A DNA stretch of 64,000 nt from a virus, in UHGV virus genome UHGV-0064883, one strand, 5' to 3'. The notes beneath the pieces are model-generated. The model had not been told where the DNA came from, searched no databases, and saw only the letters and a program-made list of their open reading frames with translations. Within the stretch, counting starts at the first letter, position 1, and each line of letters begins with the position of its first letter. Below are positions 14,563 to 63,986 of this stretch, in pieces. Both the position numbers and the translations under genes were made by a program.

Positions 14563-14570
14563 TACGCCCC

Positions 14571-33780: not shown

Positions 33781-33792
33781 GGTGGGGGGGGT

Positions 33793-44690: not shown

Positions 44691-44767
44691 TCGTGCCTTT
44701 CCCCTCCTATTTTTAATTAACCAAGCAAAAAGATATATCAAGCAAAAAAAACGAAAGGAACTGAAAC

Positions 44768-46647: not shown

Positions 46648-46802
46648 TTTTTCAGCCTGTAGAATATAAGCTGGGGCCGTTTCCCCCGGCAGAAAAAGGG
46701 AAAGGGGAACAGGCGTTCTTTCTTTCCTTTTTTTCAGGTTTGTAATTTGCGTTGGTATTGCCGCAAGCCGCAAGGGGGAATGGAAAGACAGATACCCCCG
46801 CC

Positions 46803-47495: not shown

Positions 47496-47558
47496 TGGCA
47501 GGGCGGGCGTAAGAGCCTCTTTTTTCCTGTTTTCCGTTTTTCATTTTTTCCTTTTTCC

Positions 47559-49049: not shown

Positions 49050-49061
49050 GCCGCCAATAAA

Positions 49062-49080
49062 ATTTGCAATCATTGCAAAT
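49062..49080. repeat. 19-bp palindrome ATTTGCAATCATTGCAAAT (copy 14)
   Basis: 13 nt after the terL stop. Followed by TTCAGAGAC, then a 320-nt leader containing a C8 tract (49348-49355). Confidence 0.9.
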
Positions 49081-49403
49081 TTCAGAGACTACGGCCAAAA
49101 AGCTTTTTTCCTTTACTTTTCACTTTTCCGGCACAAACAATACCAGCCCATGAAGTTCCACAGCCTTTCCATGCTTTTTACGCTCCGTGGCCCTCCCCGC
49201 CCTGTTTTTCAGCTTGTCCCCCAGGCAATCCGCGAACGGTCGGATGCGCGAGGACGGGAACGCATCATTTCCCGCGTCTGAAATAAATGGCTTTCACCAT
49301 CAGGCGCAATCTCCGCATTTCCTTTTTCTGTTGCCTTCGCCGGATTGCCCCCCCCTCGTCAGGAAGGGAACGGCAAACCGTAACCATAAACAAAAAGATA
49401 GAA

Positions 49404-50279
49404 ATGACAGTTCAAACCTTACCGGCAACCGTGCCGGACAGCGTTTCTGCGACCTTGCGCGTCGTCATGAAGCCCGTGGAATCAATTCACCCCTACGAAA
49501 ATAACCCCCGCTACAACGACAGCGCGGTTCCCTACGTCAAAAACTCAATTCAGGAGTTCGGCTTCAAGGTTCCGATTATCGTCGATGAAGCCGGAAGCAT
49601 TGTCTGCGGTCACACGAGGTACAAGGCGGCCCTGGAATTGGGCATGAGCCATGTGCCTTGCATTGTCGCTTCGGATTTGACCCCAAAGCAGATTCAGGCG
49701 TTCCGCCTTGTTGATAACAAGGTGTCGGAGTTTTCAAGCTGGGATTTTTCCAAACTTGAAATTGAGATAGGGGAGCTGGATGCCGAATTTAATCTTGATG
49801 ACTTCGGTTTTTTCTCCGATTCAGAGCGGGCGGGAAGCTCGCCGGCGGATGTGGGCAGTGCCGCAGAAATGCAGGATGATACTGCGAGGGATGACCGGAA
49901 TATCTATACAGGACGCATCATTACTCCGGTTTATGAAATTACCGGGGATTGTCCAAAAACCGAAGAGCTGGTTGACCGCACCAGAGCGGAATCCCTGCTG
50001 GAAGAGATTGACCGGACCCCAGGGCTTCCGGATGCCGTGCGTGACTTTTTGCGTATTGCCGCCATGCGGCACTATGTCCTGCATTTCGACAGGATAGCCG
50101 AGTTTTACGCCCATGCGGTCCCTCCTGTGCAGCGGCTCATGGAAAACTCCTGTCTGGTCATTATTGATTATGACCGCGCCATTGAGCTTGGATATGTGCA
50201 AATGGCACGTGCCCTGGCCGATGAATACGACCGAGAATACCCGGAAGGGGAGGAACAGGAAGGAGGCGGCGAATCATGA
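49404..50279 (+). CDS. ParB-like N-terminal (ParB/Srx) nuclease-domain protein 1
   Basis: IHPYENNPRYND...GFKVPIIVDEAGSIVCGHTRYKAALELG matches the ParB N-terminal domain with its GxxR arginine motif. The C-terminal domain is shared with copy 2. Start is an internal ATG of ORF 49287. Confidence 0.65.
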   Translation: MTVQTLPATVPDSVSATLRVVMKPVESIHPYENNPRYNDSAVPYVKNSIQEFGFKVPIIVDEAGSIVCGHTRYKAALELGMSHVPCIVASDLTPKQIQAFRLVDNKVSEFSSWDFSKLEIEIGELDAEFNLDDFGFFSDSERAGSSPADVGSAAEMQDDTARDDRNIYTGRIITPVYEITGDCPKTEELVDRTRAESLLEEIDRTPGLPDAVRDFLRIAAMRHYVLHFDRIAEFYAHAVPPVQRLMENSCLVIIDYDRAIELGYVQMARALADEYDREYPEGEEQEGGGES

Positions 50280-51211
50280 TGCGGCACTCTGATTTCTGCG
50301 TCTTGATTATTTCCCATGGACGGGCCGGGAGGGTGAAAACCCTGAACGCGCTTGAGCGTTTTGGCTACAGCGGCCCCTGGTACATCGTCATCGACAATGA
50401 GGATTCACAGGCCGGAGACTACCTTAATTGCTACGGGAGTGACCACGTTGTTGTTTTTGATAAACCCCTTGAGGCATCCAGGCTGGACATAGCGGATAAT
50501 TTTACAGGCCGTCTTGGGCGCAAAAGCACCGTGTACGTACGCAATGCGAGCTTTGACATTGCCCGCCGCCTGGGATTCCGGTATTTCATGGTGCTGGACG
50601 ACGATTACGACTATTTCCGTTTCGTATTGGACAGCAACCGCCGCTATACTTGCCGGCGCTGTGTCTGTCTGGACACAATCCTTGACATCTGCCTCGATTA
50701 CTTCACCCGTACACCGGCCCTTGCCACCATAGCGTGGCTTCAAGGCGGCGACCTGCTGGGAGGGGCCAACTCCAACAGCCTTTTCAGCCTCCGGCGAAAA
50801 GCCATGAACAGTTTTATCTGTGACACGGAACGCCCCTTTTCCTTCATGGGCCGGTTTAATGAAGACGTGAACACCTACATCACTCACGGAAACCGGGGAG
50901 TGGTCATGTTCTCAATTACGGAATTGGCGCTTAACCAGGCCAGCACCCAGCAGACGGCGGGAGGGATGACGGAAGCCTACCAGGAAAACGGAACCTACGT
51001 GAAATCGTTTTACAGCGTCATGCATATGCCGTCTGCGGTGAAAATCCGGACAATGGGCGAACGTTACCGAAGAATCCACCATGCTATTACATGGAATAAT
51101 TGTGTACCGAAAATCATCCGTCCGGAGTACCGGAAACCGGATATTGTGCGGGGTGACAGGAGAAAACGCGGCAGGAGCCGAAAAAAACTGCTTGCAATTC
51201 CGGCCCCTTAA
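50276..51211 (+). CDS. GT-A-like putative nucleotide-sugar transferase 1 (DxD-like motif)
   Basis: Hydrophobic beta1 CVLIISHGR, WYIVIDNED, and FMVLDDDYDY at about aa 105, consistent with a GT-A fold DxD. ATGA overlap with the ParB-like gene. Paralog at 54342. Confidence 0.35.
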   Translation: MMRHSDFCVLIISHGRAGRVKTLNALERFGYSGPWYIVIDNEDSQAGDYLNCYGSDHVVVFDKPLEASRLDIADNFTGRLGRKSTVYVRNASFDIARRLGFRYFMVLDDDYDYFRFVLDSNRRYTCRRCVCLDTILDICLDYFTRTPALATIAWLQGGDLLGGANSNSLFSLRRKAMNSFICDTERPFSFMGRFNEDVNTYITHGNRGVVMFSITELALNQASTQQTAGGMTEAYQENGTYVKSFYSVMHMPSAVKIRTMGERYRRIHHAITWNNCVPKIIRPEYRKPDIVRGDRRKRGRSRKKLLAIPAP

Positions 51212-51396
51212 TAGGATATTGCTAGTGTTACCCGCCCAGCGGGAACCCGACAACAACCAATAATAGCTGCTATCCAGAAAAGACAAGCCCCCGGCCCCTT
51301 CCTGCATCCCACCCGCGTATCGGATTGCCTGTCATGCGTACCGCAGGAAACCGGGGGCTTGTTTTCTTTCCCCCCTCCGGGTATAACGGCGGCGTT

Positions 51397-51723
51397 ATGA
51401 TTGCCTTGAATACTCCTATTGCCACCATACCGGGGCGCCGGTACTGCATCACCACAGTATCTTCCGTCCAGGTGATTGCCGTCATTGACGACGAAGAGTT
51501 TGATTTGCTGGGGGGCCTTCCCATCACTGGCCAGGCGCAATTTGTCGCCCCCACGGACCACATTGAGGTGCGTGACGCGTCAGCCCCGGAAGAAGGGGCG
51601 GCGGCCAGCGCGTCGGAATCATCCCCGGAAACGTCAAGCGTCATGTTTGACGGCTCCGCAACGCCCCTTGCCGGAGACGCGGCTTCCGTGTCCGGGAGCA
51701 TCGTCGAAATTGTACGCAGTTGA
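51397..51723 (+). CDS. Hypothetical protein
   Basis: Internal ATG of ORF 51325. Ser/Ala-rich C-terminus. Confidence 0.3.
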   Translation: MIALNTPIATIPGRRYCITTVSSVQVIAVIDDEEFDLLGGLPITGQAQFVAPTDHIEVRDASAPEEGAAASASESSPETSSVMFDGSATPLAGDAASVSGSIVEIVRS

Positions 51724-52041
51724 CAAGCTATCCCGGATTTGGCAGGATGCTCCCCGCATGCGCGACGCGCTTCAAAGGCGTGGATTGAGGCGATAAGGGC
51801 ATGCTTCCGCAGGGTGTATGCGTGGGGGGCAAAAGAAGGCTTCCCTTGGAGGGTATAGTGAAGACTCTCCCCTTCTCCTGCGGCAAACGGGAACAACAAA
51901 AAAGGGGATGCCCTTCCTTTTTTCCAGGATGGCCGCAGTTTTCCGCTGCGGGGAAAGAAGGAAGGGTATTTTTCCGCCTCCAATTTTTCTTTTTACTCTT
52001 TGTGCCTGATGCAGATTCCTCCCCCCCCCGATAAATGCCGA

Positions 52042-52800
52042 ATGCACTGTATCATTCCCCTGAAAGCGCGCTCTATGCGTTGCCCTGGAAAAAATTTTAG
52101 AACCTGCAACCCGTATCTTTCCGGGGGCCTGATTCCGCTGTGGGAAGTGTCGGCCCGGTACGTCAGGGGCGAGGGATGGGAACCAGTTATTTCCTGTGAC
52201 AGTCCGGAATTGTTGCATGATATTTCCCGGCGCGGATATGAACGCACTGTTTTATGGCATCCCGACCCGGAATCCCCATATATGCAGGGCCACATCAGTC
52301 AGGTTGCCGTGCAGATTAACGCCGGGGATTCTGACCTGCTTTGCGTAGTCCAGGCAACTTCCCCGGTAAGACGGCCCGGACTGCTTCGGGACATGCACGC
52401 CTTGATGTCATCCGATACCAATATTCAGGTGGCTTTTACGGGAGAACACCTGAAAATTTGCGGTATCTTGAATGGCTCTCTTTTTGGGCAGGATGAAAGC
52501 CAGTCCGCCCGGCACTGGTACGACCACTATGACGGGGCGCTTATCCTGCTGCGCTATGATACTCTGAAACGCTGCCCCCCCCGAACGGTCGTGCATCCAG
52601 GGCTGCTGTCCGGCCCCGGTGATAAAGTGGCCGTGTTTTACCAGACCCTGCCCTGGTCATTTCAAATCGACACGGAAGACGATTATTCCTTTTATCTGCA
52701 AATGCGGCGGCCTGATGCGGAAAAACAGTCAGCCTTCTGCAAACGGTCGAACCCGTATCGGGTATATACAAAAAGCGCAACCCCTGATGAATTGGCATGA
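52042..52800 (+). CDS. Acylneuraminate / CMP-ulosonic-acid cytidylyltransferase-like protein (CTP_transf_3 family)
   Basis: N-terminal IIPLKARSMRCPGKNF matches the IIPARxGSKGxxxKN P-loop of CMP-NeuAc/CMP-Kdo synthetases, followed by GGLIPLWEV. VVQATSPVRRPGLL matches the hallmark QxTSPLR motif. A C9 tract lies 13 nt upstream of the ATG and another inside the CDS at 52575-52583. Confidence 0.65.
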   Translation: MHCIIPLKARSMRCPGKNFRTCNPYLSGGLIPLWEVSARYVRGEGWEPVISCDSPELLHDISRRGYERTVLWHPDPESPYMQGHISQVAVQINAGDSDLLCVVQATSPVRRPGLLRDMHALMSSDTNIQVAFTGEHLKICGILNGSLFGQDESQSARHWYDHYDGALILLRYDTLKRCPPRTVVHPGLLSGPGDKVAVFYQTLPWSFQIDTEDDYSFYLQMRRPDAEKQSAFCKRSNPYRVYTKSATPDELA

Positions 52801-53396
52801 TTGTATTGGTAGGAAATGCCCAGGAATCTGAACACCGATTAAAAGACTACTCCGCTTTTATCGACTCCGACAAGCCCCGGTTGGTGGTGAGGGTGTCGAA
52901 AATGTGCAACTACGATTCTGGAAAGACCGGAACGCGCTGTGATTGGGTGTTCCTCAACCCTAATCCCATGTACTGGACTTTTCCGCCAGAGCGCCGCCAT
53001 TGGAATGTGCTTGCCGGGGCCAGTAAAATCATCATCACCTATCCCCCTCCCGGAAGCCTGAAAGAAGGGCCTTGCATTCCTCCGTACTGGCAAAAGGAAG
53101 AATACCGGTTTCTGCACCAGCACCCTTTTCTGGAATACTTGCCGGAGGCGGTGTTCCGGGAAGGGGTGGACCGGCGGCTGACGACGTTCGGATTTGCCCT
53201 GTGGGTGCTTTCGCGGCGTTTCCCGCATGAGCAGATAGCCCTGCATGGGTGCATTACCTCGCAGGATGCCTGGCGCCGTGTCCGCTGGTGTCCCTGGCAC
53301 AATGGCGTTGGCGAGTTTGCCCTGTATGCCAATCTGTTCCGGAACGGTCGGATTTTCAGGCTGGACGGTGGCGGATTATGCTTTGATGAGGATTGA
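52797..53396 (+). CDS. Hypothetical protein translationally coupled to the cytidylyltransferase
   Basis: ATGA overlap. 199 aa with no recognised motif. Confidence 0.35.
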   Translation: MIVLVGNAQESEHRLKDYSAFIDSDKPRLVVRVSKMCNYDSGKTGTRCDWVFLNPNPMYWTFPPERRHWNVLAGASKIIITYPPPGSLKEGPCIPPYWQKEEYRFLHQHPFLEYLPEAVFREGVDRRLTTFGFALWVLSRRFPHEQIALHGCITSQDAWRRVRWCPWHNGVGEFALYANLFRNGRIFRLDGGGLCFDED

Positions 53397-53419
53397 AACC
53401 ATGCTAAGAATCCATGAGA

Positions 53420-53438
53420 ATTTGCAATCATTGCAAAT
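53420..53438. repeat. 19-bp palindrome ATTTGCAATCATTGCAAAT (copy 15)
   Basis: Ends 20 nt before the ATG of the second ParB-like gene. Confidence 0.9.
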
Positions 53439-53458
53439 TTCAAAAATCGTTTTCGCAC

Positions 53459-54295
53459 ATGGAAATTGTAGATATTGCCGTAAAAGACCTGATTCCTTAT
53501 GATAAAAATCCGCGCCGTAATGATGAAGCGGCCGTCAAGGTGGCGGAATCCATTAAACAGTTCGGTTTTAAGATTCCCCTTGTGGTTGACCGCAATAATG
53601 TTGTTGTCTGCGGGCACACCCGTTTAAAGGCCGCAAAAAAGTTAAAGCTTAAAACTGTTCCCTGTATTCTCGCTGACGATTTGTCGGAAGACCAAATCAA
53701 GGCGTTCCGTCTGGTAGATAACCGGACGGCGGAAATCGCCGAATGGGATTTTGCCCTTTTAGAAGAGGAACTGGCGGACGTGCAGCTTGACATGACCGCC
53801 TTTGATTTCGACGACCTTTTGGCAGAAGAGGAAGCCGGAAGCGAAAACAGTCAGACCCCAGTAGGAGCCGAAAGGGAGGAAGAAAGCGCATCACCGGAGT
53901 CGCAAACTGCAGAAAATATGTACACGCAGCGCATCGTCACTCCGGTTTATGAGGTTACCGGAGATTGCCCGGAAGTGTCTTCCCTGGTGGACAAGGGCAA
54001 AGCGGAAGCGCTGCTGGAATCCATTAACCAAGCCCAGGAACTCCCGGATGATGTGCGGGAGTTTTTACGCATCGCCGCCGCCAGGCATTATGTTTTGCAT
54101 TTTGACCGCATCGCTGAATACTACGCCCACGCCCCGGCCCATATTCAGCGGCTCATGGAGGATTCCTGTCTGGTTATCATTGATTTTAACAAAGCCATTG
54201 AGCAGGGATATATCCGCATGTCCGAACGATTGGCCGCGCTGGCCAGCATAGACGAACAGGGCGCAACGGAAGAAGAAGACGAAGCGGACGAATAA
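53459..54295 (+). CDS. ParB-like nuclease-domain protein 2 (diverged paralog of 49404-50279)
   Basis: LIPYDKNPRRND...GFKIPLVVDRNNVVVCGHTRLKAAKKL. The C-terminal YTQRIVTPVYEVTGDCPE...LRIAAARHYVLHFDRIAEYYAHA is about 70% identical to copy 1. Confidence 0.65.
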   Translation: MEIVDIAVKDLIPYDKNPRRNDEAAVKVAESIKQFGFKIPLVVDRNNVVVCGHTRLKAAKKLKLKTVPCILADDLSEDQIKAFRLVDNRTAEIAEWDFALLEEELADVQLDMTAFDFDDLLAEEEAGSENSQTPVGAEREEESASPESQTAENMYTQRIVTPVYEVTGDCPEVSSLVDKGKAEALLESINQAQELPDDVREFLRIAAARHYVLHFDRIAEYYAHAPAHIQRLMEDSCLVIIDFNKAIEQGYIRMSERLAALASIDEQGATEEEDEADE

Positions 54296-54341
54296 CACAG
54301 GCCGCTTTGATTTTTTTACCGCAATAACTTTTCTTTTTTTT

Positions 54342-55205
54342 ATGCTGACGCATTCCGATTTTTGCACGTTTATTTTGTCTCATGGACGGCCAAACAATAT
54401 CAGAACCCTGCACCCGTTGCTAAACACCGGAAATTACAGCGGCCCCTGGTACATCATTATCGACAATGAGGACCCCACGGCGGAAACCTACTATCAGCTT
54501 TACGGCTCCGACCGGGTAATCATGTTTGACAAGGAGGCCGAAGCCCGTCGCCTGGATATTGCAGATAATTTCGTCCACATGAGCCGCAAGACCATTACCT
54601 ATGCCCGCAATGCCTGTTATGACATTGCCAAAAACTTGGGCTACACGTATTTTTGGCAGCTGGATGACGATTATTGCCGGTTTCGGTACGTGACCGACCA
54701 GGCCGGAAAATACGTGTACCACAGCATCCGCCACCTGGACGAAGCGTTGAACGCGACCCTTGATTATTATAAAAGCGTTCCTTCCCTGACCCTGTTGTCC
54801 TGGATGCAGGGCGGGGATTTACTGGGCGGCGCCAACAGCCAGTCTCTGACCGTGGTGAAGCGAAAAGCCATGAACAGCTTTATTTGCTCTACCGAGCGCC
54901 CCATAAAGTTCCGGGGCCGGATGAATGAGGACGTAAACACCTATGTTTCCGAGGGCAACCGGGGAAAGCTCATTATGATGGCGAATTGTGCCGGCATTTT
55001 ACAGACCCCCACCCAGATTAACGACGGAGGAATCACGGAACTTTACAGGTCTTGCGGCACTTACACCAAGGCAATGTACACTGTGATGCACATGCCCTCA
55101 GTAACTACAGTGGGCATGATGCACAGCACTTTTCCCCGGATTCACCACACAATAAATTGGAACAACTGCGTTCCGAAAATTATCCGGCAGGAGCTTAAAA
55201 AATAG
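54342..55205 (+). CDS. GT-A-like putative nucleotide-sugar transferase 2 (paralog of 50276-51211)
   Basis: MLTHSDFCTFILSHGRP...WYIIIDNED...YFWQLDDDYCRF; about 55-60% identical to copy 1. Confidence 0.35.
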   Translation: MLTHSDFCTFILSHGRPNNIRTLHPLLNTGNYSGPWYIIIDNEDPTAETYYQLYGSDRVIMFDKEAEARRLDIADNFVHMSRKTITYARNACYDIAKNLGYTYFWQLDDDYCRFRYVTDQAGKYVYHSIRHLDEALNATLDYYKSVPSLTLLSWMQGGDLLGGANSQSLTVVKRKAMNSFICSTERPIKFRGRMNEDVNTYVSEGNRGKLIMMANCAGILQTPTQINDGGITELYRSCGTYTKAMYTVMHMPSVTTVGMMHSTFPRIHHTINWNNCVPKIIRQELKK

Positions 55206-55293
55206 AGCTTTTCCGGGAAGAAAGACCCTTCATCTATCGGCCCTGTCTGGATATTAGCCCGGCAGGGCCGCAGTATATCTTTCTCTTTTTCTC

Positions 55294-55431
55294 AATTTGC
55301 AATCATTGCAAATTTTTTTTCTCAAAAAAGATTCTTTTTCTCTTGCAATTTATAAAAAATAATGCTAAATTACATTCATCAAAGGGAGGGAATAACTCTC
55401 CTACAGCAAAAAGCCTGAAAGTTAAAACATA
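55294..55431 (+). promoter_or_regulatory. Palindrome (copy 16) plus conserved promoter/leader cassette
   Basis: ATTTGCAATCATTGCAAAT, then TTGCAA-17nt-TAAATT, then CATTCATCAAAGGGAGGGAATAACTCTCCT (stem GGAG/CTCC). Confidence 0.55.
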
Positions 55432-55683
55432 ATGAAGACTGCAACCATCATTTACCGCTGGACCGCCAAAACCTCTTCCAGATGTCTTGGCCGCTATTAT
55501 ACCGCCAGCACCCTGCTTGAAGCCATTAAGGCGGGAAAAGAATTTGTGACCCGTGAGTTCCACGGGACGGGTTCCGTACTTATTGAAGCTTCCCTGGACG
55601 GAGGAAAAACCTGGCACGTTAATCGCGAATACAGACGCGACCGTTATACCCAGATGCGCTGGACAGCGGAAGTTTTCTATTGA
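55432..55683 (+). CDS. Small protein, paralog family A (with 44430-44690)
   Basis: YRWTA...TLLEAIKAGKEFVTREF...ASLDGGKTWHV. Confidence 0.45.
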   Translation: MKTATIIYRWTAKTSSRCLGRYYTASTLLEAIKAGKEFVTREFHGTGSVLIEASLDGGKTWHVNREYRRDRYTQMRWTAEVFY

Positions 55684-55769
55684 TACCCCCTTCCCCGGCT
55701 GGAAATTATATTTGGCCGGGGAATAAACCTGATTTCATTATTATTTACTTAAATCATAAAGAAAAAACC

Positions 55770-56060
55770 ATGAACAGAAACGTAACTAAAACCGTAACCC
55801 ATCATATTCTTCCCTGTCTGGGCCTTCTGATTGTTGAAGCCGTCTCCTGCGTGCTTGCCGTCTATGGCATTGTTATCCTGCTTGGATATGACGCGCCTTC
55901 CCTTTATTGTGTGTTATCCGGGATTCTGAAAGCTATCGCGCTGGTAATATTGCTTCTCATCAGCGTGGGAAGCCTGGTGGGTATTGTGGGTGTGGCAGTG
56001 CATCTTTTTTCCTCAAATTGCCGTTGCCAGGAAGAAGACAGTGATGAAATTAACCGATAA
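55770..56060 (+). CDS. Small membrane protein
   Basis: Two or three TM helices (ILPCLGLLIVEAVSCVLAVYGIVILLG; AIALVILLLISVGSLVGIVGVAV). Confidence 0.4.
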   Translation: MNRNVTKTVTHHILPCLGLLIVEAVSCVLAVYGIVILLGYDAPSLYCVLSGILKAIALVILLLISVGSLVGIVGVAVHLFSSNCRCQEEDSDEINR

Positions 56061-56075
56061 TCCTCCAGACAAAAA

Positions 56076-56636
56076 ATGAAATTGACGCTTGAACAAAAAG
56101 CTTTTTATGAATATGGCCGGGCTGTGGAATCCCTCAAGAGGACAATTTACGAAACCCGCGAAACTGCTATTCAGGAATTCAAAGACCCATACCGCTTTCT
56201 TTCGACATATGACCGGAAACAGCTGATTGACGCAATGGGTCTTGCCTCGGAGATTTCTGCTGTCCGGCAGAAGCGTGCCGCGTGCAGGGCGTGGAAGTTG
56301 CTAGCACAAAGACATTGCCAGAATTGTTGTTATTACGGAAAATCCGGTAATGATGCGCCCTGCGTCGATTGTACCTTGGGAGACATTGGTGATGATACTC
56401 GTCTTAGCTGTAATTGGGCGCCAAGGCGCAAGTTCAGAAAAGGTGATATTGTACGTCGGATTGATACCGGAAAAATGCGGGCGTATGATGACCATATTCC
56501 ATTCGGAAAACTTGTAACCATACTGAAAGACGAGACTGATGACGACTGCGGAAATATCTTAGTAGGAACTAGAGAAACTACGCAGGCCGTAAAATTCTAT
56601 GAAGTGAAACTTTTTTTAAAAAAAGCTAACGATTGA
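56076..56636 (+). CDS. Cys-cluster protein, paralog family B (with 45901-46258)
   Basis: MKLTLEQKAFYEYGRAV... and a CQNCCYYG...CVDC cluster. Confidence 0.4.
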   Translation: MKLTLEQKAFYEYGRAVESLKRTIYETRETAIQEFKDPYRFLSTYDRKQLIDAMGLASEISAVRQKRAACRAWKLLAQRHCQNCCYYGKSGNDAPCVDCTLGDIGDDTRLSCNWAPRRKFRKGDIVRRIDTGKMRAYDDHIPFGKLVTILKDETDDDCGNILVGTRETTQAVKFYEVKLFLKKAND

Positions 56637-56837
56637 TTGAACATGAAAAAAGAAAAACTTAAATGTTTTATATGCGGGCAAGCAGTAGAATTAGTTGGTG
56701 ACTCTGCTCAAATAGAACGTATGGGTTATGACAGGCACAATGACCGTCCGTTTTTTAATGTCTGCCGTGAATGTCAACAACTTATCGACAAATGCCTTAT
56801 AGAATTTGAGCAGAAATTTCCAGATGAAGACGCTTAA
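56637..56837 (+). CDS. Small zinc-ribbon protein
   Basis: CFICGQ...CREC, 66 aa. Confidence 0.35.
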   Translation: MNMKKEKLKCFICGQAVELVGDSAQIERMGYDRHNDRPFFNVCRECQQLIDKCLIEFEQKFPDEDA

Positions 56838-57168
56838 ATGTCCACTGTGCGGGAGTTTGTTGAAACTGGATTTCAGTTGCAAATATATCTGCCCCAATTG
56901 CGAACTAGCTGCAAAAAGCGGAATCTCAAAAGAAGAGGCACTAAAACGTGCGGAAAAACTTATTTCTCAATTCCCACCTATCATGCGGGTATTTCCAGGA
57001 GATAAGTTAAAGTTTTTTAACCACCAAATGCGCCAGAAAATTGCATACATAGAAAAAGTTAATTTGAAGTCTGGCTGGATAAAAACAAATAAAGGATTTG
57101 CCCGCCCGGATGATGTGATTCTGTGGCCTTGGGAACTTGAACAAAAAGAAGAAGGAGATAAACAATGA
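56824..57168 (+). CDS. Zinc-ribbon protein, paralog family C (copy 2)
   Basis: MKTLKCPLCG...CPNC, then ISQFPPIMRVFPGDK, then WPWELEQ. Confidence 0.45.
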   Translation: MKTLKCPLCGSLLKLDFSCKYICPNCELAAKSGISKEEALKRAEKLISQFPPIMRVFPGDKLKFFNHQMRQKIAYIEKVNLKSGWIKTNKGFARPDDVILWPWELEQKEEGDKQ

Positions 57169-57506
57169 AAACACCTAGATGTCCGCTGTGCGGAGAAGAA
57201 TTAACGCCGTCTGTACAAAAATACGGATTTGAATACGTCTGCTGGAAGTGCAAATGGCAAACCGCTTCACTTTGCTCCACCAGGCAAGAAGCGGAAAAAA
57301 CAGCTCAAAAGCTAATCTCCAAGTTCCCTCCCATCATGAGGGTTCATCCTGGCGATAAGCTTCATGACAAGTGGTGCGGGCTGGTCACGGTTGAATCCGT
57401 CGATAAGGAAGACTGTGTAATCACAGTACGAACTGTCAAGGGGAATGTATCCCGTACTTATTGCGAGGATGTTAATGAATGGCCCTGGGAAATCGAACAA
57501 GAATAA
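57165..57506 (+). CDS. Zinc-ribbon protein, paralog family C (copy 3)
   Basis: MKTPRCPLCG...CWKC, then ISKFPPIMRVHPGDK, then WPWEIEQ. ATGA overlap with copy 2. Confidence 0.45.
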   Translation: MKTPRCPLCGEELTPSVQKYGFEYVCWKCKWQTASLCSTRQEAEKTAQKLISKFPPIMRVHPGDKLHDKWCGLVTVESVDKEDCVITVRTVKGNVSRTYCEDVNEWPWEIEQE

Positions 57507-57509
57507 ATT

Positions 57510-57803
57510 ATGGACATAAATGAATTGTTAGAAGATAAGGATAACGGGCTTGTTCCGTTAGACGGGCGCAGTTATGATATAGCTGCATACGCTGGACAAC
57601 TACGGCAGGCCCGGAATCTTTTACTGGGTTCCCTGCCCGCTGAAACAGTGGCTTGCATGTCGGATAATGAAGTACTCCAAACTTTGGTTGACTGCAAGAA
57701 TCTCGTTCCAGTCGCCGCCTCCTATAAAGACGGCATAGACGATGAAGTCATCTTTCTGGTTCCGGCGGAAATATTGAAGAGGTGCAGGGTTCTGCAACGC
57801 TGA
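57510..57803 (+). CDS. Hypothetical protein
   Basis: 97-aa ORF. Confidence 0.35.
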   Translation: MDINELLEDKDNGLVPLDGRSYDIAAYAGQLRQARNLLLGSLPAETVACMSDNEVLQTLVDCKNLVPVAASYKDGIDDEVIFLVPAEILKRCRVLQR

Positions 57804-57862
57804 ATGATTTTCCGGCAAACCACGCTATGAACGGAAAAACATGAGAAAAAAGGAATCATGCA

Positions 57863-58270
57863 ATGACCGATATTCTTCTATCTATCAAAAAGCCGTTCTC
57901 CGACCTCATTTTGTCGGAGGAAAAGAAATGGGAGCTGCGGAAAACCGAACCCCGCGCCATGAAAGACGGCCCCATAATGCTCTGGCTTTATGAATCCGGG
58001 AAGGATGGGGCGCATGCCATTATTGGAAAATGCCAGACAAAGTATGCGCTGCCCATGCTCCAACAACTGAACAACTGGCAACGCCTGTGGATGATGCGGG
58101 AAGCCTGCATCACGAAAGAATACCTGTCTTCCTACATCCCCTGCCGCGCCTGGAACCTCACCAGCCCCGTGCGGCTTCCCTACGCCGTACCGCTCTCTGA
58201 AATCGGCCTGGTCCGCCCTCCGCAGTCCTGGCAATACCTCACCGAAGAACAAGCAGCACTTTTACGATGA
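57863..58270 (+). CDS. ASCH-domain (PUA-like) protein
   Basis: N-terminal ILLSIKKPFSDLILSEEKKWELRK matches the ASCH start pattern (ILLSIKP-x-Y-x-x-I-x-x-G-x-K-x-x-E-x-R). Confidence 0.45.
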   Translation: MTDILLSIKKPFSDLILSEEKKWELRKTEPRAMKDGPIMLWLYESGKDGAHAIIGKCQTKYALPMLQQLNNWQRLWMMREACITKEYLSSYIPCRAWNLTSPVRLPYAVPLSEIGLVRPPQSWQYLTEEQAALLR

Positions 58271-58420
58271 AAAACCCTATAAAATTTCTACAGCACATGA
58301 TTACCGGCATACAGACTGCCACCCCCCCCCACCTCTACTACCGCCGCCGAAGAAACCCCGGAAAGGCAGACGTACAGGAATCTCCGGCAGGCATGGAGAT
58401 ATTACTACCGCACTCACAAG

Positions 58421-58633
58421 GTGGATTTGGCCATTCTTTACCAGTTAACCGGCCTGCGTGACCGGCTGGACCCGGACAAAGACCCGGAACAGTACGCCCA
58501 TGCGGTGAAGGCGGTGGAAGCCATCAATGGTGTCCTGGCTCAAAACCGGATTATCCAGACACGCATTTCCGCCCTGATGACCGACTGCCGGAAAAAGTAC
58601 GAGAAAAACAGAACGCCCCATCATGAGCAGTAA
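58421..58633 (+). CDS. Hypothetical protein; possibly the C-terminal part of a gene split at a C9 tract
   Basis: 70-aa ORF. The upstream ORF 58267-58461 carries a C9 tract (58322-58330). Deleting one C would fuse the two frames. Confidence 0.3.
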   Translation: MDLAILYQLTGLRDRLDPDKDPEQYAHAVKAVEAINGVLAQNRIIQTRISALMTDCRKKYEKNRTPHHEQ

Positions 58634-59423
58634 TTTTGAAATACCGCCCCAGGAACTTTATGTTGACTGGCCGGAACAGCCCTGGCCCCGCCTGTCAGGG
58701 CAGCTTGACCGGAAGCAGCTCCGCCGCGAATTGCTGGACGTGCTGAAACATCTTTCAAACAAGGCGAAACTCCGTATTGGGCCGTCCGGGACCACCAGCA
58801 AGAAAGTACATTATGCCTGCGAATCCAGATATACCCGTCTGATAGCCTCTGACTGTGTGGCGCTGGCCGTCATTACCCGGAAACGGCTGGAAGCTGACAA
58901 GCCGGCAGGCTATTGCGGGCATATTGCACCCAAATCGGGAAGAATCTACCCCGACAAGCCGAACTACTTCACGCAGTTCTGGAAACGGTCGATGCCCGGC
59001 AGCCCGGAATGCACCATTGCCATCAACTACGATACGTGCATTGCCAGCCTCGAACGGTTTGCCTTTTTCGCCAATATGGCTGATTCCAGCCAAAACTGCT
59101 GCGCGGAAAATTACTATTTTGGCGTAACAAACCGCCGTGGAAACTTTATTGCCGTCCATCCGTGCTATATCGGCAATTTTCTCCGGCTGGTGGAAATCCT
59201 GCACCGCCATCTTGGCGGCCGATTGAAAATGACCCTGCGCGTTCCCGCCGCACAGAGCGGCCCTCTGCGTTTTTCCTTCCTGGCGGGCAAGAATGCGGGC
59301 GATTGCTATATTCTGGACTACGCCGTAATGCCGTTCTGGCATAAGCATCCCCTCAAAGGCTTCCGCCGCGTGGCGCTGAACTGCTTCCAGATAGGCAATT
59401 GGGCGGGGAAGAACAAGCCCTGA
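58623..59423 (+). CDS. Hypothetical protein
   Basis: 266-aa ORF. Confidence 0.45.
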   Translation: MSSNFEIPPQELYVDWPEQPWPRLSGQLDRKQLRRELLDVLKHLSNKAKLRIGPSGTTSKKVHYACESRYTRLIASDCVALAVITRKRLEADKPAGYCGHIAPKSGRIYPDKPNYFTQFWKRSMPGSPECTIAINYDTCIASLERFAFFANMADSSQNCCAENYYFGVTNRRGNFIAVHPCYIGNFLRLVEILHRHLGGRLKMTLRVPAAQSGPLRFSFLAGKNAGDCYILDYAVMPFWHKHPLKGFRRVALNCFQIGNWAGKNKP

Positions 59424-59426
59424 AAA

Positions 59427-59445
59427 ATTTGCAATGATTGCAAAT
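59427..59445. repeat. 19-bp palindrome ATTTGCAATGATTGCAAAT (copy 17)
   Basis: 3 nt after the previous stop; 90 nt before the tail fiber ATG. Confidence 0.9.
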
Positions 59446-59535
59446 TTCAAAAAAGTGCGCGGGATGCCATATGTGCGGGGTTCCGTGCGCTTTGCGGTTT
59501 GACAGCCTGCGCCCTTTGAAACAAAGTGTGCCTGT

Positions 59536-61941
59536 ATGATTCAAGCCGCCCATTTTGACATCAAGACCGTTACCGGACTCCGGCAGGCGCTGGTACTGTC
59601 CGCAGAGTATGAAAATGAGCCTTTCCCTCTTGAGGGCTACACCCTCCACGGCAGTATCGGGACGTACCCAAGAATGGATTTGAAATGTTCCGTGGACGAA
59701 AACGGTCGCGCCCGGATTGAATGGGATTCCGTGCCTCCGGGGAACTGGAAATATGATGTGTTTCTCATCAGTGCCAGCAACGATGAAACCCCCCTCATGG
59801 AAGGGACTTTCACCGCCCTTCCAAGAATCACCCCCGTTCTGGACGATGAATCCGTCAATGATGAAGTCGGCGGGGTTCTGCACCTGCCTTCCGGGAACGA
59901 GGGAACTATCACCTTGGAGGTTGACGGCGGATTCGTCTCAAAAGAATATGCGGCCATTGCCAAGGATGCGGCGGAGAAGGCCCAACAGGCTCTGGAAGAC
60001 ATCAAGCAGGCATTGCAGGGCGTAGTCACGTCGATTGGCGGGGCATCCGGAGACATCCTTCTGGATTCCGGTCTGAAAATCACCGGCGACCGGGAAAAAG
60101 GCAATGTTTCCCTGTCCCTGGACGACAAAACGGTCGTATTGACCGCGGGCAGCCAGACGATTGACGGCGTGAAAACCTTTTCATCCCCTCCCGTCATTGC
60201 GTCCGCCCCCGCTTCCAACAATGAGGCGGCAAACAAGAAGTATGTCGATGACATGGCGAGCAAGGCCACCGGCACTACCATTAACGGCGTTTCCGGGAAC
60301 ATCACGCTGGACCTTCCCATGCAGCTGGACCCTGGTACCAAGTCCATGTCTGTAGATTTGAGCGGCTACGCCTCTTTGCAGACGGATAACGTTTTTGAGG
60401 GCGGCAATACGTTTATGGCCGGAATCAAGGGCCATGTCGACAGCGTAACCGGCACTGATATCCTGTACGCAACCAACGTCCCCGGCGACAGCAGCAGCGG
60501 GCATCCGGTATTGACCATTGAGCATGTCGGTTCCAGCAACGTGAGGATTTCCTCCGGAACGCATTTGCTGTTGAAAGCCAGGGGCGGCAATATTTATGCG
60601 GAATCCATCTTCACCGCGAACGGGGGCGTCAATGTTTACGGCTCCGCCCTGTTCAATTCCGGCGTAACCGCCAGCCAGTCGCTCACCGTGGGCGGCCATG
60701 CCCAGTTCAATGATACTGTGCGCGTGGAAACCGGGAAAATCGACCCCGGCAATTTCGGCCATACCTGGACATTCGGCTCACTGATTGATTCCCCCACGAC
60801 TGACGACAACAACAATCACCGGCTATGCTGCAAATCCACTTCCGACAACGGGGCCTACATCATCTACCATGAGCGGGTGATCAACGGCGCATGGATGAAA
60901 GATAAGATTATTCCCGCCTGCCAGTTCGATTTTTCCTGGCACAACGACGCCTCCCTTGTCGTCAAGGACCCCACTAAGGCGGAACAGGCCGCCAACAAAA
61001 ATTATGTGGATTCGCAGTTTAATTGCCTGTCCCTGTCCTACATGACTCTGGACACCCCGCAAACGGTCAAAGCCGAAAAAACCTTTACCGGCAACGTCAA
61101 TATCAACACCAACGGAAACAACGGCACGCTGACCCTGAAAACCAGCGGGGGCGTGGGGTATCTGGTAATGGACACCGGAGAATTCTCCATTTCTGTCGAT
61201 TATCTCACTCTGGGGGGCCAAACTTTCGTTCAAACGCTGAATGTGGCGGAATCCTCCCTGTTCACCGGGTCCGTAACCGTGAGCCAATACCTGAAAACAA
61301 GCTCGCTGGACGCTGAAAACGTGGAAGCGAGTACGATAAATCTGGTGGATAGTTATGACCTGTCCTGCATTGACCTGATGCCGTTTTACGACTCTCCAGA
61401 TACAGCAAGCCTAATCTTCCATCCCGCCCAGACCGGCCCCGGCACAACGGATTACGATATACAGCTTTATTTCACCTACGGTTCCAGCGGCGGCTTCGCG
61501 GACTGGCTGGCCGGACCATCTATACAGATGATGCGGTTCCATCCGGCAATCGGGTTTTACAATGCGGTATCTTACAGCAATCCGGTAGTGTTTCTCGGTT
61601 CAGCTACATTCAGCGCCCTGTTGAAAGCGCAGCAGGCTGAAATAGACCAGCTGAAAATCAACAGCCCGTTGTATGAGGAGGGGTTTTTAGCCTGGCAGGA
61701 TGCCGGGGGCCTCTCCATGACCCGCCCCAGCATTACGGAATCCCTATACGATGCCGACAACCCCAAAGCCATGTTGAACCGGGAAGACAACGACCAGCGC
61801 TATTTGCAGGTAAAATCCCTTACGGCGGCGGAATACGCAGCCCTCGGTTCCTACAGTCTGACAACCCTGTACCGGATTACGGATGCAGACCCCGCCGCGG
61901 TATATCTGGGGGACCTGAAATTATCCGTGGCCGCCGACTGA
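59536..61941 (+). CDS. Tail fiber protein
   Basis: 801 aa. Repeated A-x-NK-x-YVD motifs (EAANKKYVDDMA, AANKNYVDSQF) are typical of phage tail-fiber repeats. Gly/Ser/Thr/Asn-rich beta-type composition. Confidence 0.7.
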   Translation: MIQAAHFDIKTVTGLRQALVLSAEYENEPFPLEGYTLHGSIGTYPRMDLKCSVDENGRARIEWDSVPPGNWKYDVFLISASNDETPLMEGTFTALPRITPVLDDESVNDEVGGVLHLPSGNEGTITLEVDGGFVSKEYAAIAKDAAEKAQQALEDIKQALQGVVTSIGGASGDILLDSGLKITGDREKGNVSLSLDDKTVVLTAGSQTIDGVKTFSSPPVIASAPASNNEAANKKYVDDMASKATGTTINGVSGNITLDLPMQLDPGTKSMSVDLSGYASLQTDNVFEGGNTFMAGIKGHVDSVTGTDILYATNVPGDSSSGHPVLTIEHVGSSNVRISSGTHLLLKARGGNIYAESIFTANGGVNVYGSALFNSGVTASQSLTVGGHAQFNDTVRVETGKIDPGNFGHTWTFGSLIDSPTTDDNNNHRLCCKSTSDNGAYIIYHERVINGAWMKDKIIPACQFDFSWHNDASLVVKDPTKAEQAANKNYVDSQFNCLSLSYMTLDTPQTVKAEKTFTGNVNINTNGNNGTLTLKTSGGVGYLVMDTGEFSISVDYLTLGGQTFVQTLNVAESSLFTGSVTVSQYLKTSSLDAENVEASTINLVDSYDLSCIDLMPFYDSPDTASLIFHPAQTGPGTTDYDIQLYFTYGSSGGFADWLAGPSIQMMRFHPAIGFYNAVSYSNPVVFLGSATFSALLKAQQAEIDQLKINSPLYEEGFLAWQDAGGLSMTRPSITESLYDADNPKAMLNREDNDQRYLQVKSLTAAEYAALGSYSLTTLYRITDADPAAVYLGDLKLSVAAD

Positions 61942-61977
61942 TTTACTTTACAGCAATCCCCCTCCGCCTATAATTGC

Positions 61978-62547
61978 ATGCCTATGAAAGACAACATCCT
62001 AGTGTTATGCCACAGCAACATGCACCGCAGCCCGTTCGTTGCGGAATTCATCCGGAACTCCCCCTACGGAGACAGCTATGAAGTCCGTGATGCGGGACTG
62101 CACGTCGACAAGGAGCAGCGCGTGCCCAAATCCCTTCAGCGGGCCTTCCAGACCGTCTCCCAGGGGAGCCTGAAAAGCCACAAGTCGCGCCCGGTGGGAA
62201 TCAGCGATATTCTGTGGGCAGACAAAATAATCATCATGGAGCCGGAGAACAAAAGCGACCTCCTGCAAATGCTCGGAAGCCTGCACCTCTCCGACAAGCC
62301 CCGGTACGACCACATTGTCTCCAAGATAATCTCCCTGGCCCAAATCGGCGGGAAGACAGCCGTGGACGACCCTCACCACTACTCCCCCGGAACGATCGAA
62401 TACGGAAAAGTAGTATTAAACCTCGCCTGCCTGACAGCCGTCCTTCTGGAAACGTGGGAAGCCCAGCGTTCATTGAGCGGAGGGGAAAAATCCAAAGACC
62501 GGAAACCGGACGACGCGGAATCCGCAGCAGGCCCATTCGGAGCTTGA
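61978..62547 (+). CDS. Low-molecular-weight protein-tyrosine phosphatase (LMW-PTP/ArsC-fold)
   Basis: ILVLCHSNMHRSPFVAEFI carries the C-x5-R-S P-loop signature. A downstream DP (VDDPHHYS) matches the position of the catalytic Asp. Confidence 0.65.
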   Translation: MPMKDNILVLCHSNMHRSPFVAEFIRNSPYGDSYEVRDAGLHVDKEQRVPKSLQRAFQTVSQGSLKSHKSRPVGISDILWADKIIIMEPENKSDLLQMLGSLHLSDKPRYDHIVSKIISLAQIGGKTAVDDPHHYSPGTIEYGKVVLNLACLTAVLLETWEAQRSLSGGEKSKDRKPDDAESAAGPFGA

Positions 62548-62846
62548 CCCGTACCCCCCCCGCATACAATACCGCATAGCCTACACCTCGACATGATATA
62601 TGCTTTCGGCGCAGGACAACGAAAGCCTCCGGTGGAGGCTGATTCAGATGAATGTAATCGTCGTCTGGTTTTACCTCCTGCGGCTCCGGGATTCCGGAAT
62701 CTGGAACAAACACCTGCAGCAGAAGCTGGACGACACGGAACTCGTCTTTTTAATCATCAAATGGTACATGTGGTACATGCCCGTTCTGTTCCCCGCCTGA
62801 TTGCGGGTGGCGAGATGAGATAAAATGATGGGCCGCGCGGAAAAAA

Positions 62847-62882
62847 CGTGTAAAACGTGTAAAACATGTAAAATATGTGCAG
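62847..62882. repeat. Tandem 9-bp repeat (C/T)(G/A)TGTAAAA x3-4 (iteron-like)
   Basis: CGTGTAAAA CGTGTAAAA CATGTAAAA TATGTGCAG, in a 440-bp noncoding stretch that also holds C8 and C9 tracts. Confidence 0.5.
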
Positions 62883-62986
62883 TGCATGTATGCAGGGGGG
62901 ACATATCGCGCGCAGGCGCGGATGCGTAAAGGCATGCGGCCCTACCCCCCCCTATGAAAGTAAATAAATAAAGAAAAAAATCGGAA

Positions 62987-63742
62987 ATGCACGCCTATTT
63001 GCTCTACACACCGGGGGAAATGCTGGAAGGCGAAGACGAACTTACCGCACTGGGCTACCATGTCCATCCTTTTTTGGGCAATAATGATACGTCCGGCCTC
63101 CGGAACAAAGTCAAACACATTCCCAGCCTGGGGCATTCCGCGTCCTATTTATCAGACGGACTGGGCTACAACTGGTGCGGCCACGTCCATGCGCTCCGCG
63201 CCAACTTTGCAACCATGCTGGAAACTTACATGGATGCGGACGACCTTACTATATATGGAGAGTCGGACTGCGTGCCCGCGCCTTATCCCCCTGTGTCCGC
63301 CGACGATATTTCCTGTGTTTGTCAAGAAGCGGTTTCCCGGCATCCTGAAATCGGCATCATCCGTCTGTACCGCCGCGCCACACTATTTAACGAGCCTACC
63401 TGGTGGAACCATGCGCCCCTTGAGATTGTCCCGCTGAAAAAGGCGGCCAGAATCTCCAACATTCCTTTTACGAAATATTACTGTCAAACCCACGCCCTGA
63501 TTATCCGCAGGCACGTCCGCCAAACGGTCATCGACGCCATGCGGGATTATTATTTGCCCATTGACGTGCTCCTATCTTATTTGTCCCAGATTGGGACCGT
63601 GCCCGTGTGGCACACCAGCATCAACCTAATGCTTCAACGCCCCCACAGCACGGGAAAGAGGCTGGCGGACTGGCAGCGCAAACATTCTGTTCCGGCAGCG
63701 GACTATTGGCGCGACAGGCCCGGACTGACTGGAAAAAGGTAG
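62987..63742 (+). CDS. Hypothetical protein
   Basis: 251 aa. A C9 tract lies 35 nt upstream of the ATG. Confidence 0.4.
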   Translation: MHAYLLYTPGEMLEGEDELTALGYHVHPFLGNNDTSGLRNKVKHIPSLGHSASYLSDGLGYNWCGHVHALRANFATMLETYMDADDLTIYGESDCVPAPYPPVSADDISCVCQEAVSRHPEIGIIRLYRRATLFNEPTWWNHAPLEIVPLKKAARISNIPFTKYYCQTHALIIRRHVRQTVIDAMRDYYLPIDVLLSYLSQIGTVPVWHTSINLMLQRPHSTGKRLADWQRKHSVPAADYWRDRPGLTGKR

Positions 63743-63750
63743 GTGCACAA

Positions 63751-63769
63751 ATTTGCAATCATTGCAAAT
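63751..63769. repeat. 19-bp palindrome ATTTGCAATCATTGCAAAT (copy 18)
   Basis: Last copy. Downstream the gene strand switches to minus. Confidence 0.9.
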
Positions 63770-63788
63770 TTTCCTTTTCCCCTCTTTT

Positions 63789-63986
63789 TTACTCTTCCCG
63801 CCTGTCCCGATTGCCGGAATCCCCCAGTAGTGAGTTCCGCGCCTGCTGGGTTTTCAAAAATTCTTTCCAGTAGTGCTCATACGGCCTGTTCGGCTGCGAC
63901 CGGATAATTTCTCTGCAAATCCGCGCATTTTTCAGCAGGCTTTCCATGCCGGAAATCATTGCGGTGTCTGGATGCTCTTCTGTCAT
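63789..63986 (-). CDS. Hypothetical protein (minus strand)
   Basis: 65-aa ORF (MTEEHPDTAMISGMESLLKN...). The only ORF of any length at the window end. Confidence 0.3.
   Translation of the reverse strand: MTEEHPDTAMISGMESLLKNARICREIIRSQPNRPYEHYWKEFLKTQQARNSLLGDSGNRDRREE

Follow-up and report, generated by a model that had tools for sequence, protein, structure and literature searches.

The stretch of the virus genome UHGV-0064883 that was analysed here (the window; 64 kb with 52% G+C and almost every gene on the + strand) contains several runs of eight or nine cytosines, and some of these runs differ in length between genomes that are otherwise almost identical. For the runs at 49348, 52021, 52575 and 58322, and for a further run which relatives carry in the second of two ParB-like genes (ParB-like 2), we consider it moderately probable from the sequence comparisons that they are slipped-strand hypermutable tracts acting as contingency loci. 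Directly observed are the tracts, their excess, their conserved positions, the length differences between near-identical genomes and the consequences for the reading frames. The tracts in the window are the following.

52021-52029, + strand: C9 tract in the 5' region of a cytidylyltransferase-like gene, between ATG 52009 and the main ATG 52042
58322-58330, + strand: C9 tract, codon 19 of a small gene that closely precedes the tail-fibre block
52575-52582, + strand: C8 tract, codons 178-181 (CPPR) of the cytidylyltransferase-like gene; the window copy is in frame
49348-49355, + strand: C8 tract in the 5' region of the first ParB-like gene (ParB-like 1); in frame with ATG 49287
62554-62561, + strand: C8 tract, 7 nucleotides (nt) past the stop of gene 61978-62547
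62945-62952, + strand: C8 tract in a non-coding stretch containing 9-nt iterons, before ATG 62987
2611-2618, + strand: C8 run, Pro-Pro-Pro codons within gene 2371-2877
33784-33791, + strand: G8 run, 1 nt before the ATG of the resolvase-like gene 33793-34152, in the 12-nt gap that separates this gene from gene 32554-33780
44701-44707, + strand: degenerate tract CCCCTCC after a hairpin; relatives carry C8-C9 at this site

An initial annotation of this DNA had proposed such runs as phase-variable switches. It placed C9 tracts at 52021-52029 and 58322-58330, C8 tracts at 49348-49355 and 62554-62561 and a G8 run at 33784-33791, all of which were found in the sequence as described. Two further tracts listed there as C9 (52575-52583 and 62945-62953) actually consist of eight cytosines, and a C8 run given as 2621-2628 lies at 2611-2618. 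The distances to the next ATG, reported as 13, 49 and 35 nt, were re-measured as 12 nt (52029 to 52042), 48 nt (49355 to 49404) and 34 nt (62952 to 62987).

The length distribution of the C runs in the window is non-monotonic (61 C5, five C6, one C7, five C8 and two C9 runs), whereas A and T runs decay smoothly; examples of A8/T8 runs lie at 44744, 46989, 54334 and 55313. Seven runs of at least eight cytosines were observed; the analytic expectations are 0.9 (order 0) and 0.06-2.7 (Markov orders 1-5). The excess claimed earlier is therefore real, except that C9 occurs at two sites only. A shuffle of synonymous codons in 79 coding sequences gave the same picture, with five coding runs of at least eight cytosines versus 0.99 expected (P=0.002), a depletion of runs of six to seven cytosines (6 versus 11.4) and no coding run of at least eight guanines (0 versus 1.7). 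These results indicate that long G/C runs are avoided in general, with the exception of the class of poly-C runs of at least eight. The lengths, C8-C9 in the window and C7-C10 in relatives, lie in the range in which G/C tracts are expected to be hypermutable (at least about 7-8 nt).

In agreement with the proposed concentration at accessory genes, six of the seven C tracts fall into 13.6 of the 64 kb, the accessory region (binomial P=5e-4); other 20-kb portions of the relatives' genomes contain zero to two such tracts. The tracts had also been described as all poly-C on the coding strand. C indeed prevails over G, but within the window alone this strand bias is weak (7 C versus 1 G, P=0.07). 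After merging of split clusters, about 18 distinct C loci versus 4 G loci were counted in the whole lineage, all in gene orientation. A flanking motif common to the tracts was not seen by eye, and a scan of 49-63 kb for sigma-70 promoters and terminators, which does not cover Bacteroidota promoters, returned chance-level counts and nothing at the tracts.

Length variation in relatives and its consequences for reading frames

The relatives comprised 4 IMG/VR and 14 metagenome loci identified in protein-guided scans, and the genomes L019, L029, L030 and L028 (ERZ1689179, ERZ1689583, ERZ1690134, ERZ28597580), which were added by exact-protein look-ups. Their contigs (83-92 kb) are derived from human gut samples and represent more than 20 independent assemblies. 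Four of them, L011-L014, form a clade with about 80% identity, and it shares three tract positions with the window, which together with the result of the codon shuffle points to over-representation or maintenance of the tracts.

Two relatives required special treatment. L018 (ORSK01001092, cov 7.8) carries many 2-nt duplications compared with all other relatives, for example at 7430-7910. It was therefore regarded as a low-quality assembly and its tract lengths were set aside. L009 (ERZ1673702 NODE-282) was treated with caution. It differs from window 44317-63789 at 849 sites, of which 351 are exchanges of TpG/CpA to CpG and 82 the reverse. When the changes in 46.7-53.3 kb were polarised with L013 and L014, 84 of 127 such sites proved to be derived, most of them in L009 alone, and even ATG starts of the 52042 gene are turned into ACG. 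This anomaly is either an artefact of chemistry or base calling, possibly on modified DNA, or a context-specific hypermutation.

L030 and the window show no mismatch over 11,765 bp and a single indel, one C at 58322; L029 shows one mismatch over 15,051 bp and the same single indel. In L019 we found 30 mismatches and three indels. The C9 tracts 52021 and 58322 account for two of these indels and a C4-to-C3 change in the first gene for a TET-associated glycosyltransferase (TAGT 1) for the remaining one; none of about ten A/T runs of at least 7 nt was altered. From these three comparisons we conclude that the poly-C tracts are the fastest-changing sites at short distance. Their polymorphism exceeds that of the flanks, and several length states occur within sub-lineages. 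The comparison of tract lengths across relatives, which the initial annotation had suggested as a check, thus supports hypermutable tracts at 49348, 52021, 52575 and 58322.

In silico, a change in length results in a frameshift at 52575, at 58322 and in the tract of ParB-like 2. The C9 state at 58322 is present in the window only, and the open reading frame (ORF) stops there at 58461 after 64 amino acids. In nine relatives (L006-L009, L017, L019, L028-L030) the tract is C8 and an intact protein of 121-123 amino acids is encoded. As predicted by the initial annotation, loss of one C fuses 58267-58461 with the frame of 58421-58633. The gene 58267-58633 had no PHROG match, and an exact look-up of the frameshifted 64-amino-acid product of the window found no record of it.

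The tract at 52575, which in the window is in frame and encodes CPPR as stated before, is C8 in 16 of 18 genomes and C7, and therefore frameshifted, in L016 and L028; in L011-L014 it is replaced by CCCTGCCC. In protein clusters built from hundreds of assemblies, the frameshifted C-terminus forms the clusters P0013 and P0014 (17 and 34 members), compared with about 600 members in the in-frame clusters.

At 52021 and 49348 a change in length shifts which upstream start is in frame. Among 22 good-quality genomes the tract at 52021 is C7 in one, C8 in ten, C9 in eight and C10 in three. ATG 52009 is in frame with ATG 52042 only at C9 (MQIPPPPDKCR-MHCIIPLKARS...), and GTG 52002 only at C8. With C8, the frame of ATG 52009 becomes an ORF of 17 codons which overlaps the main start, and with C10 this ORF ends 7-8 nt short of it. 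L011-L014 keep the arrangement of upstream ATG, tract and in-frame main ATG despite different flanks. The tract does precede ATG 52042, as had been noted, but judging from these frames it is probably part of a reading frame that begins at an upstream start, so that a position 'upstream of the ATG' is too simple a description. The tract at 49348 is C8 in seven, C7 in four and C5 in three good-quality genomes. At C8 or C5, ATG 49287 is in frame with ParB-like 1 (an ORF of 329-330 amino acids), and C7 leaves an upstream ORF of 31 codons.

The tract in the linker of ParB-like 2 is present in nine relatives (C5-C9) and absent in the window. It is out of frame in L001, L002, L003, L005, L008 and L010 (C9) and in L009 (C7); the frame is kept in L028 (C8), in L004 (C5) and in seven genomes without the tract. 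These states are interleaved among sub-lineages differing by at most 3 amino acids. In the four C9 genomes without a deletion, the frame downstream of the tract is open to the natural stop. At the degenerate tract 44701 we found C8 in L001, L007, L009 and L028, C9 in L008 and an interrupted tract in the window and L019.

A slippage model would connect these findings. During replication of the C:G run one strand would slip, and the progeny would gain or lose one C. In the coding tracts this would truncate or restore the cytidylyltransferase-like protein (at codon 178), the tail-proximal protein of 121 amino acids (at codon 19) and ParB-like 2 of the relatives. In the 5' tracts the length would determine which upstream start shares the frame of the main ORF: for the 52021 tract, ATG 52009 in the case of C9 and GTG 52002 in the case of C8. 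The outcome would be a population heritably mixed for a putative DNA base-modification module, consisting of two ParB-like/TAGT pairs and a CMP-sugar synthetase-like enzyme, and for a tail-associated gene. A possible benefit would be escape from restriction systems which target modified DNA or are blocked by it. We infer the slippage mechanism, its reversibility, the effect of 5' tracts on expression and any benefit from the observed lengths and frames. More tentative, and in our judgement short of an even chance, is the wider proposal that in Flandersviridae-like gut phages with a probable Bacteroidales host at least five poly-C loci switch base glycosylation and a tail gene in a combinatorial manner, with bursts that mix 'phasotypes'. 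If this were true, the phasotypes would differ in DNA modification and in adsorption properties.

Several observations weigh against an interpretation as contingency loci. At 1-3% divergence, intact downstream frames weigh little against a recent pseudogenisation, and the L001-type genomes combine the out-of-frame tract of ParB-like 2 with a 4.6-kb deletion, so this gene may be decaying. At 52021 the ratio of in-frame to out-of-frame states is about 8 to 10, no different from an absence of constraint, and with GTG 52002 and ATG 52009 as upstream starts in separate frames the tract is hard to read as a plain on/off switch. The difference between C9 and C8 at 58322 (window versus L029/L030) could be one homopolymer error in the assembly of the window. 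At 62554 and 62945 the length varies minimally or not at all. Finally, intergenic A/T runs of 7-8 nt also vary among more distant relatives (6 to 9 nt in the case of the T7 at 46728); poly-C is therefore not alone in varying in length.

Alternative explanations

Chief among the rivals is neutral, strand-biased expansion within genes that are dispensable; less weight attaches to sequencing error, recoding and fixed cis-elements. In the neutral case the replication of this lineage would expand C runs of one strand past about 6-7 nt, the runs would survive where frameshifts are tolerated, and out-of-frame states would reflect gene decay. Length-dependent expansion predicts the gap at C6-C7 and the peak at C8-C9, and a strong bias such as about 18 C versus 4 G loci would be in line with it. 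Tracts also appear and vanish among relatives (44701 and 2611 are interrupted, the ParB-like 2 tract is absent in the window), the region is rich in deletions and contains one duplication and the C4-to-C3 frameshift in TAGT 1 of L019, and A/T runs vary as well. However, the tracts 49348, 52021 and 62554 persist across clades about 20% apart, 52021 even with different flanks. The tract at 52575 remains uninterrupted and in frame in 16 of 18 genomes, although a synonymous change would end the hazard (CCC accounts for 30% of the proline codons). Moreover, the tract positions favour 5' ends and host-interaction genes. On balance we regard a purely neutral origin as rather unlikely.

Four of the window's runs, at 2611, 62554, 62945 and 33784 (G8), gave no support for switching. 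The 2611 run is C8 in L021 and reads CCTCCCCC in L020, a synonymous change, and is probably incidental. The G run at 33784 has eight guanines in L023 and L024 and seven in L025, a length change without frame consequence; the following gene 33793-34152 matches PHROG 2002 (Holliday junction resolvase). At 62554, L013 and L014 have C7 and the window, L006, L009 and both L029 copies have C8, again without frame consequence. The tract at 62945 is C8 in every good-quality copy (window, L009 and twice in L029), and in L013 and L014 the whole 170-nt stretch containing it is absent. For 62554, 62945 and the G8 run no placement altering expression was evident. The initial annotation had counted 2611, 62554, 62945 and the G8 run among its switch candidates. 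This is not supported, for 2611 in view of its Pro codons and the synonymous interruption, for the other three in view of the small or missing variation and the lack of a frame effect.

For 62554, 62945 and the G8 run, invariant structural or binding elements are a possible explanation, although a somewhat doubtful one. With the same reserve, we propose as possible roles pairing in a long-range C8:G6 stem that encloses ORF 62648-62800, recognition by a DNA-binding protein or participation in an initiation region. The G run concerned is located as follows.

62895-62900, + strand: G6 run in the 3' arm TGTATGCAGGGGGG of an inverted repeat; the run is kept in L018 and L029

The 5' arm of this repeat, CCCCCCCGCATACA (62555-62568), and TGTATGCAGGGGGG are complementary over 14 nt to 93% and lie 318 nt apart. 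In addition, the tracts 62554 and 62945 both carry the direct repeat CC(G/C)TACCCCCCCC, three 9-nt iterons AAAACGTGT are located between them within a 440-nt stretch, both are C8 in all close relatives, and the G8 run at 33784 is only 1 nt away from an ATG. On the other hand, L013 and L014 retain the 62554 tract (C7) without the G run and without 62945, covariation is seen in L009 alone and would follow automatically from the CpG anomaly of that genome, and the sample is small (4-6 copies). For 62554 and 62945 a function as fixed cis-elements is possible. An inverton at 62554-62900 was rejected because no relative carries the segment inverted: all relatives align on the plus strand only, although no recombinase-specific search was made.

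The ORF 62648-62800 (50 amino acids, with the hydrophobic stretches MNVIVVWFYLLRL...KWYMWYMPVLFPA) is conserved in both clades and had no PHROG match; it escapes ORF listings which require at least 60 amino acids. In L029 the region 11710-15048, corresponding to window 62332-64001, is an exact tandem duplication of 1,669-1,670 bp. It spans both C8 tracts, the small ORF and a gene of 251 amino acids, and its junctions are away from the tracts. The duplication could be a real recent event or an effect of the assembly.

Sequencing or assembly error, with fixed true lengths and artefactual differences between contigs, had been named by the initial annotation as an equally good explanation. It is true that several platforms make errors in G/C homopolymers of 8-10 nt, that only one C distinguishes the window from L029 and L030, that L018 with its 2-nt duplications is of low quality and that L009 shows the systematic CpG anomaly. 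As a general explanation, error is nevertheless very improbable. The tracts are found at the same positions in more than 20 assemblies, and contig names of the type NODE_..._cov_... (L019, L029, L030, L009, L013, L014) suggest SPAdes-type assemblies with 8-32x coverage. Within one gene and the same contigs, the 52575 tract is C8 in 16 of 18 genomes while 52021 is spread over C7-C10, which is not what a uniform sequencing error would give. Furthermore, C7 at 52575 recurs in clusters with 51 member sequences, and C5 at 49348 and in ParB-like 2 is a change of 3 nt that keeps the frame, which random error would not favour.

Recoding, in which CCC CCC CCC is read by +1 ribosomal frameshifting (tRNA-Pro at CCC-C, poly-proline stalling) or by slippage of the RNA polymerase, is the least probable alternative: both out-of-frame C9 cases (58322 in the window and ParB-like 2 in six relatives) require exactly +1, C9 is the majority state of the ParB-like 2 tract (6 of 9 genomes) and CCC-C is a known +1 shift-prone site (tRNA-Pro, m1G37 and EF-P work), but in-frame alleles are common (C8 in 9 of 10 genomes at 58322; C8 in L028, C5 in L004 and seven tract-less genomes for ParB-like 2) and the out-of-frame arrangement, which a programmed frameshift should conserve, is conserved at none of the genes.

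Genomic setting and the putative DNA-modification module

The tracts of the accessory region are located among the following genes.

47559-49049: TerL, followed by ParB-like 1
49287/49404-50279, + strand: ParB-like 1 (Pfam ParB_N, 3e-07; PHROG 620 and 842 are given for ParB-like 1 and TAGT 1)
50276-51211, + strand: TAGT 1 (Pfam TAGT, 5e-28), followed by an ORF of 129 amino acids
52009/52042-52800, + strand: cytidylyltransferase-like gene, followed by an ORF of 199 amino acids
53414/53459-54295 and 54342-55205, + strand: ParB-like 2 and TAGT 2, followed by small ORFs; no tract in the window
58267-58633, + strand: frameshifted gene (58267-58461 plus the frame of 58421-58633), followed by a gene of 266 amino acids
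59536-61941, + strand: tail-fibre or baseplate-like protein (Pfam BppL_N, 3e-08; PHROG tail fibre, 1e-07)

The product of the 52042 gene gave no match in direct searches of Pfam, PHROG and NCBIfam. A profile of its family reached 50 distant proteins (E<=1e-3; range 3e-15 to 6e-4), and all ten that were tested belong to Pfam CTP_transf_3. A weak PDB match to PpNeuA covers the QATSP motif (E=0.83), and an AlphaFold2 model, computed from a shallow alignment, reached a predicted local distance difference test (pLDDT) score of 32, too low to be of use. Because the family profile leads to CTP_transf_3 proteins, it is reasonable to label the gene as a putative divergent cytidylyltransferase (CMP-sugar synthetase-like). 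The assignment made in the initial annotation can thus be kept by transitive profile homology, but not by a direct family match. A minus-strand ORF at 51270-51983 was rejected; its translation is of low complexity.

The initial annotation had further suggested a switch of a 'glycan system'. Considering the neighbouring ParB-like and TAGT genes, this system is most likely a module for DNA-base glycosylation rather than for a surface glycan. ParB-like and TAGT genes adjoin the terminase in TET/JBP-associated hypermodification clusters (Burke et al. 2021, PMC8256090; PF20691), and the two genes of the window are likewise located beside the terminase. Two TAGT and two ParB_N genes are present, but unlike in these clusters, in which TAGT occurs with a TET/JBP dioxygenase and a C5-methyltransferase, neither of the latter was found among 54 other ORFs of the window; about 20-28 kb of the genome lies beyond it. 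The word 'homopolymer' does not occur in Burke et al. 2021 (PMC8256090).

The two ParB-like/TAGT pairs (49287-51211 and 53414-55205) contain ParB genes which are about 71% identical over 283 nt. The second pair is deleted in the L001-type genomes (window 54244 is fused to 58860) and absent from L013. In TAGT 1, the C4 at window 50374 corresponds to a C3 at L019 8335, resulting in a frameshift in an otherwise 99.9% identical genome; according to the gene caller the L019 product comprises 226 amino acids.

A palindrome, TTGCAAT(C/G)ATTGCAA, occurs at 19 sites of the window versus 0.24 expected (2898, 6913, 10705, 13554, 15526, 18500, 24826, 26935, 32127, 35957, 36810, 41360, 43096, 44290, 49064, 53422, 55297, 59429 and 63753). 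Because it is usually located 25-143 nt before a gene start, it is probably a promoter or operator element of the phage. The copy at 53422 falls into the first 15 codons of the annotated ORF of ParB-like 2, and for this reason the real start of the gene is probably 53459. In L012-L014 a C8-C10 tract adjoins one copy of the palindrome. A leader motif, AAAAACCTAAAAACCT, recurs at 27041, 36065, 36925, 41467 and 44400 (0.09 expected), in each of the five cases ahead of a small gene and some 15-25 nt from its ATG. Upstream of TerL, genomes of the 80%-identity clade carry a C8-C9 run which T7-T9 adjoins without a gap, at a distance of about 10 nt from the start codon (L012 5206; L013 5480, C8T9; L014 5532, C9T7); the window is merely T-rich at this place.

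Elsewhere in the window PolA, DnaB, RecA, a tape measure protein, an N6-methylase, RuvC-like resolvases and a BACON domain are encoded. The gene starts are A-rich and show no Shine-Dalgarno motifs, and a tRNA scan found no tRNA genes. A megablast search of 49-64 kb against GenBank phages gave no match, and TerL tblastn matches reached at most 33% identity, which indicates that there is no cultured relative. In a search against 185,579 species genomes, TerL gave matches of 27-32% only and no lead to a host or prophage. The BACON domain, the missing Shine-Dalgarno sequences and the origin from the gut make a host from the Bacteroidota likely.

By description, the phage fits the 'Flandersviridae', gut phages with a median genome of 85.2 kb, a BACON domain, DnaB and PolA (Benler et al. 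2021, PMC8008677). The present phages and the 'Flandersviridae' are both known from human-gut metagenomes, share genome size (83-92 kb here) and the three genes or domains, and have a long run of unknown ORFs after the replication module. Unlike the window, 'ParB' has no occurrence in that paper, and its searched passages do not mention homopolymer tracts.

Comparison with known systems

Poly-G/C contingency loci of bacteria are well known from the surface-glycan and restriction-modification genes of Haemophilus, Neisseria, Campylobacter and Helicobacter. The tracts described here resemble them in their lengths (8-10), in their location at the 5' end of ORFs or near the start codon, in the combinatorial states of several loci and in the association with sugar-nucleotide and glycosyltransferase genes. 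They differ in that the genome is viral, the target is probably the DNA bases and not a surface glycan, and the tracts are located on one strand. To our knowledge, Bacteroidota are not known for phase variation by G/C tracts.

Among phages, polyG tracts are present in receptor-binding genes of Campylobacter Fletchervirus phages (Sorensen et al. 2021 Cell Rep 35:109214, via PMC12633550). To the extent that they are described in the latter source, the two cases share several G/C homopolymers of 7-11 nt per phage genome, a location in host-interaction genes and length changes that move genes in and out of frame, by which subpopulations are created in Fletchervirus. In contrast to these polyG tracts, the present ones are poly-C on the coding strand of an uncultured gut phage with a likely Bacteroidota host, most of them lie in the putative DNA-modification module instead of receptor-binding genes, and they are known from sequence alone.

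A second phage case is agt, the DNA alpha-glucosyltransferase gene of T2, with an A-tract contingency locus through which the phage alternates its DNA glucosylation between two threats from type IV restriction (Gomez, Barrick & Waters 2025 preprint, PMC12633550). In both phages a homopolymer is located in a DNA-glycosylation gene; in T2, frameshifts of +/-1 toggle the modification, and bet-hedging between restriction systems attacking glycosylated or unglycosylated DNA has been proposed (PMC12633550). However, the A runs of T2 are of ordinary abundance in an AT-rich genome (PMC12633550), whereas C8-C10 runs are over-represented here. The tracts of the present lineage also occur in 5' regions and in ParB-like and CMP-sugar synthetase-like genes, and its glycosyltransferases belong to the TAGT family.

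If the tracts do switch, an abundant gut phage lineage would diversify its DNA modification and tail functions with each burst, with a bearing on restriction escape, on the stability of phage-host pairs in the gut and on the reading of metagenomic 'pseudogenes' in phage accessory regions. [quoted passage not shown] Under the wider, more tentative proposal given above, it would be the first case in phages of Bacteroidota and the first connection of simple-repeat switching with TAGT-type DNA hypermodification. A literature search found no report of poly-C tracts in such a TAGT/ParB/CMP-sugar context of gut phages. Taken together, homopolymer switches of phages are already described, and the present case adds to them an uncultured gut lineage and the context of TAGT, ParB-like and CMP-sugar genes.

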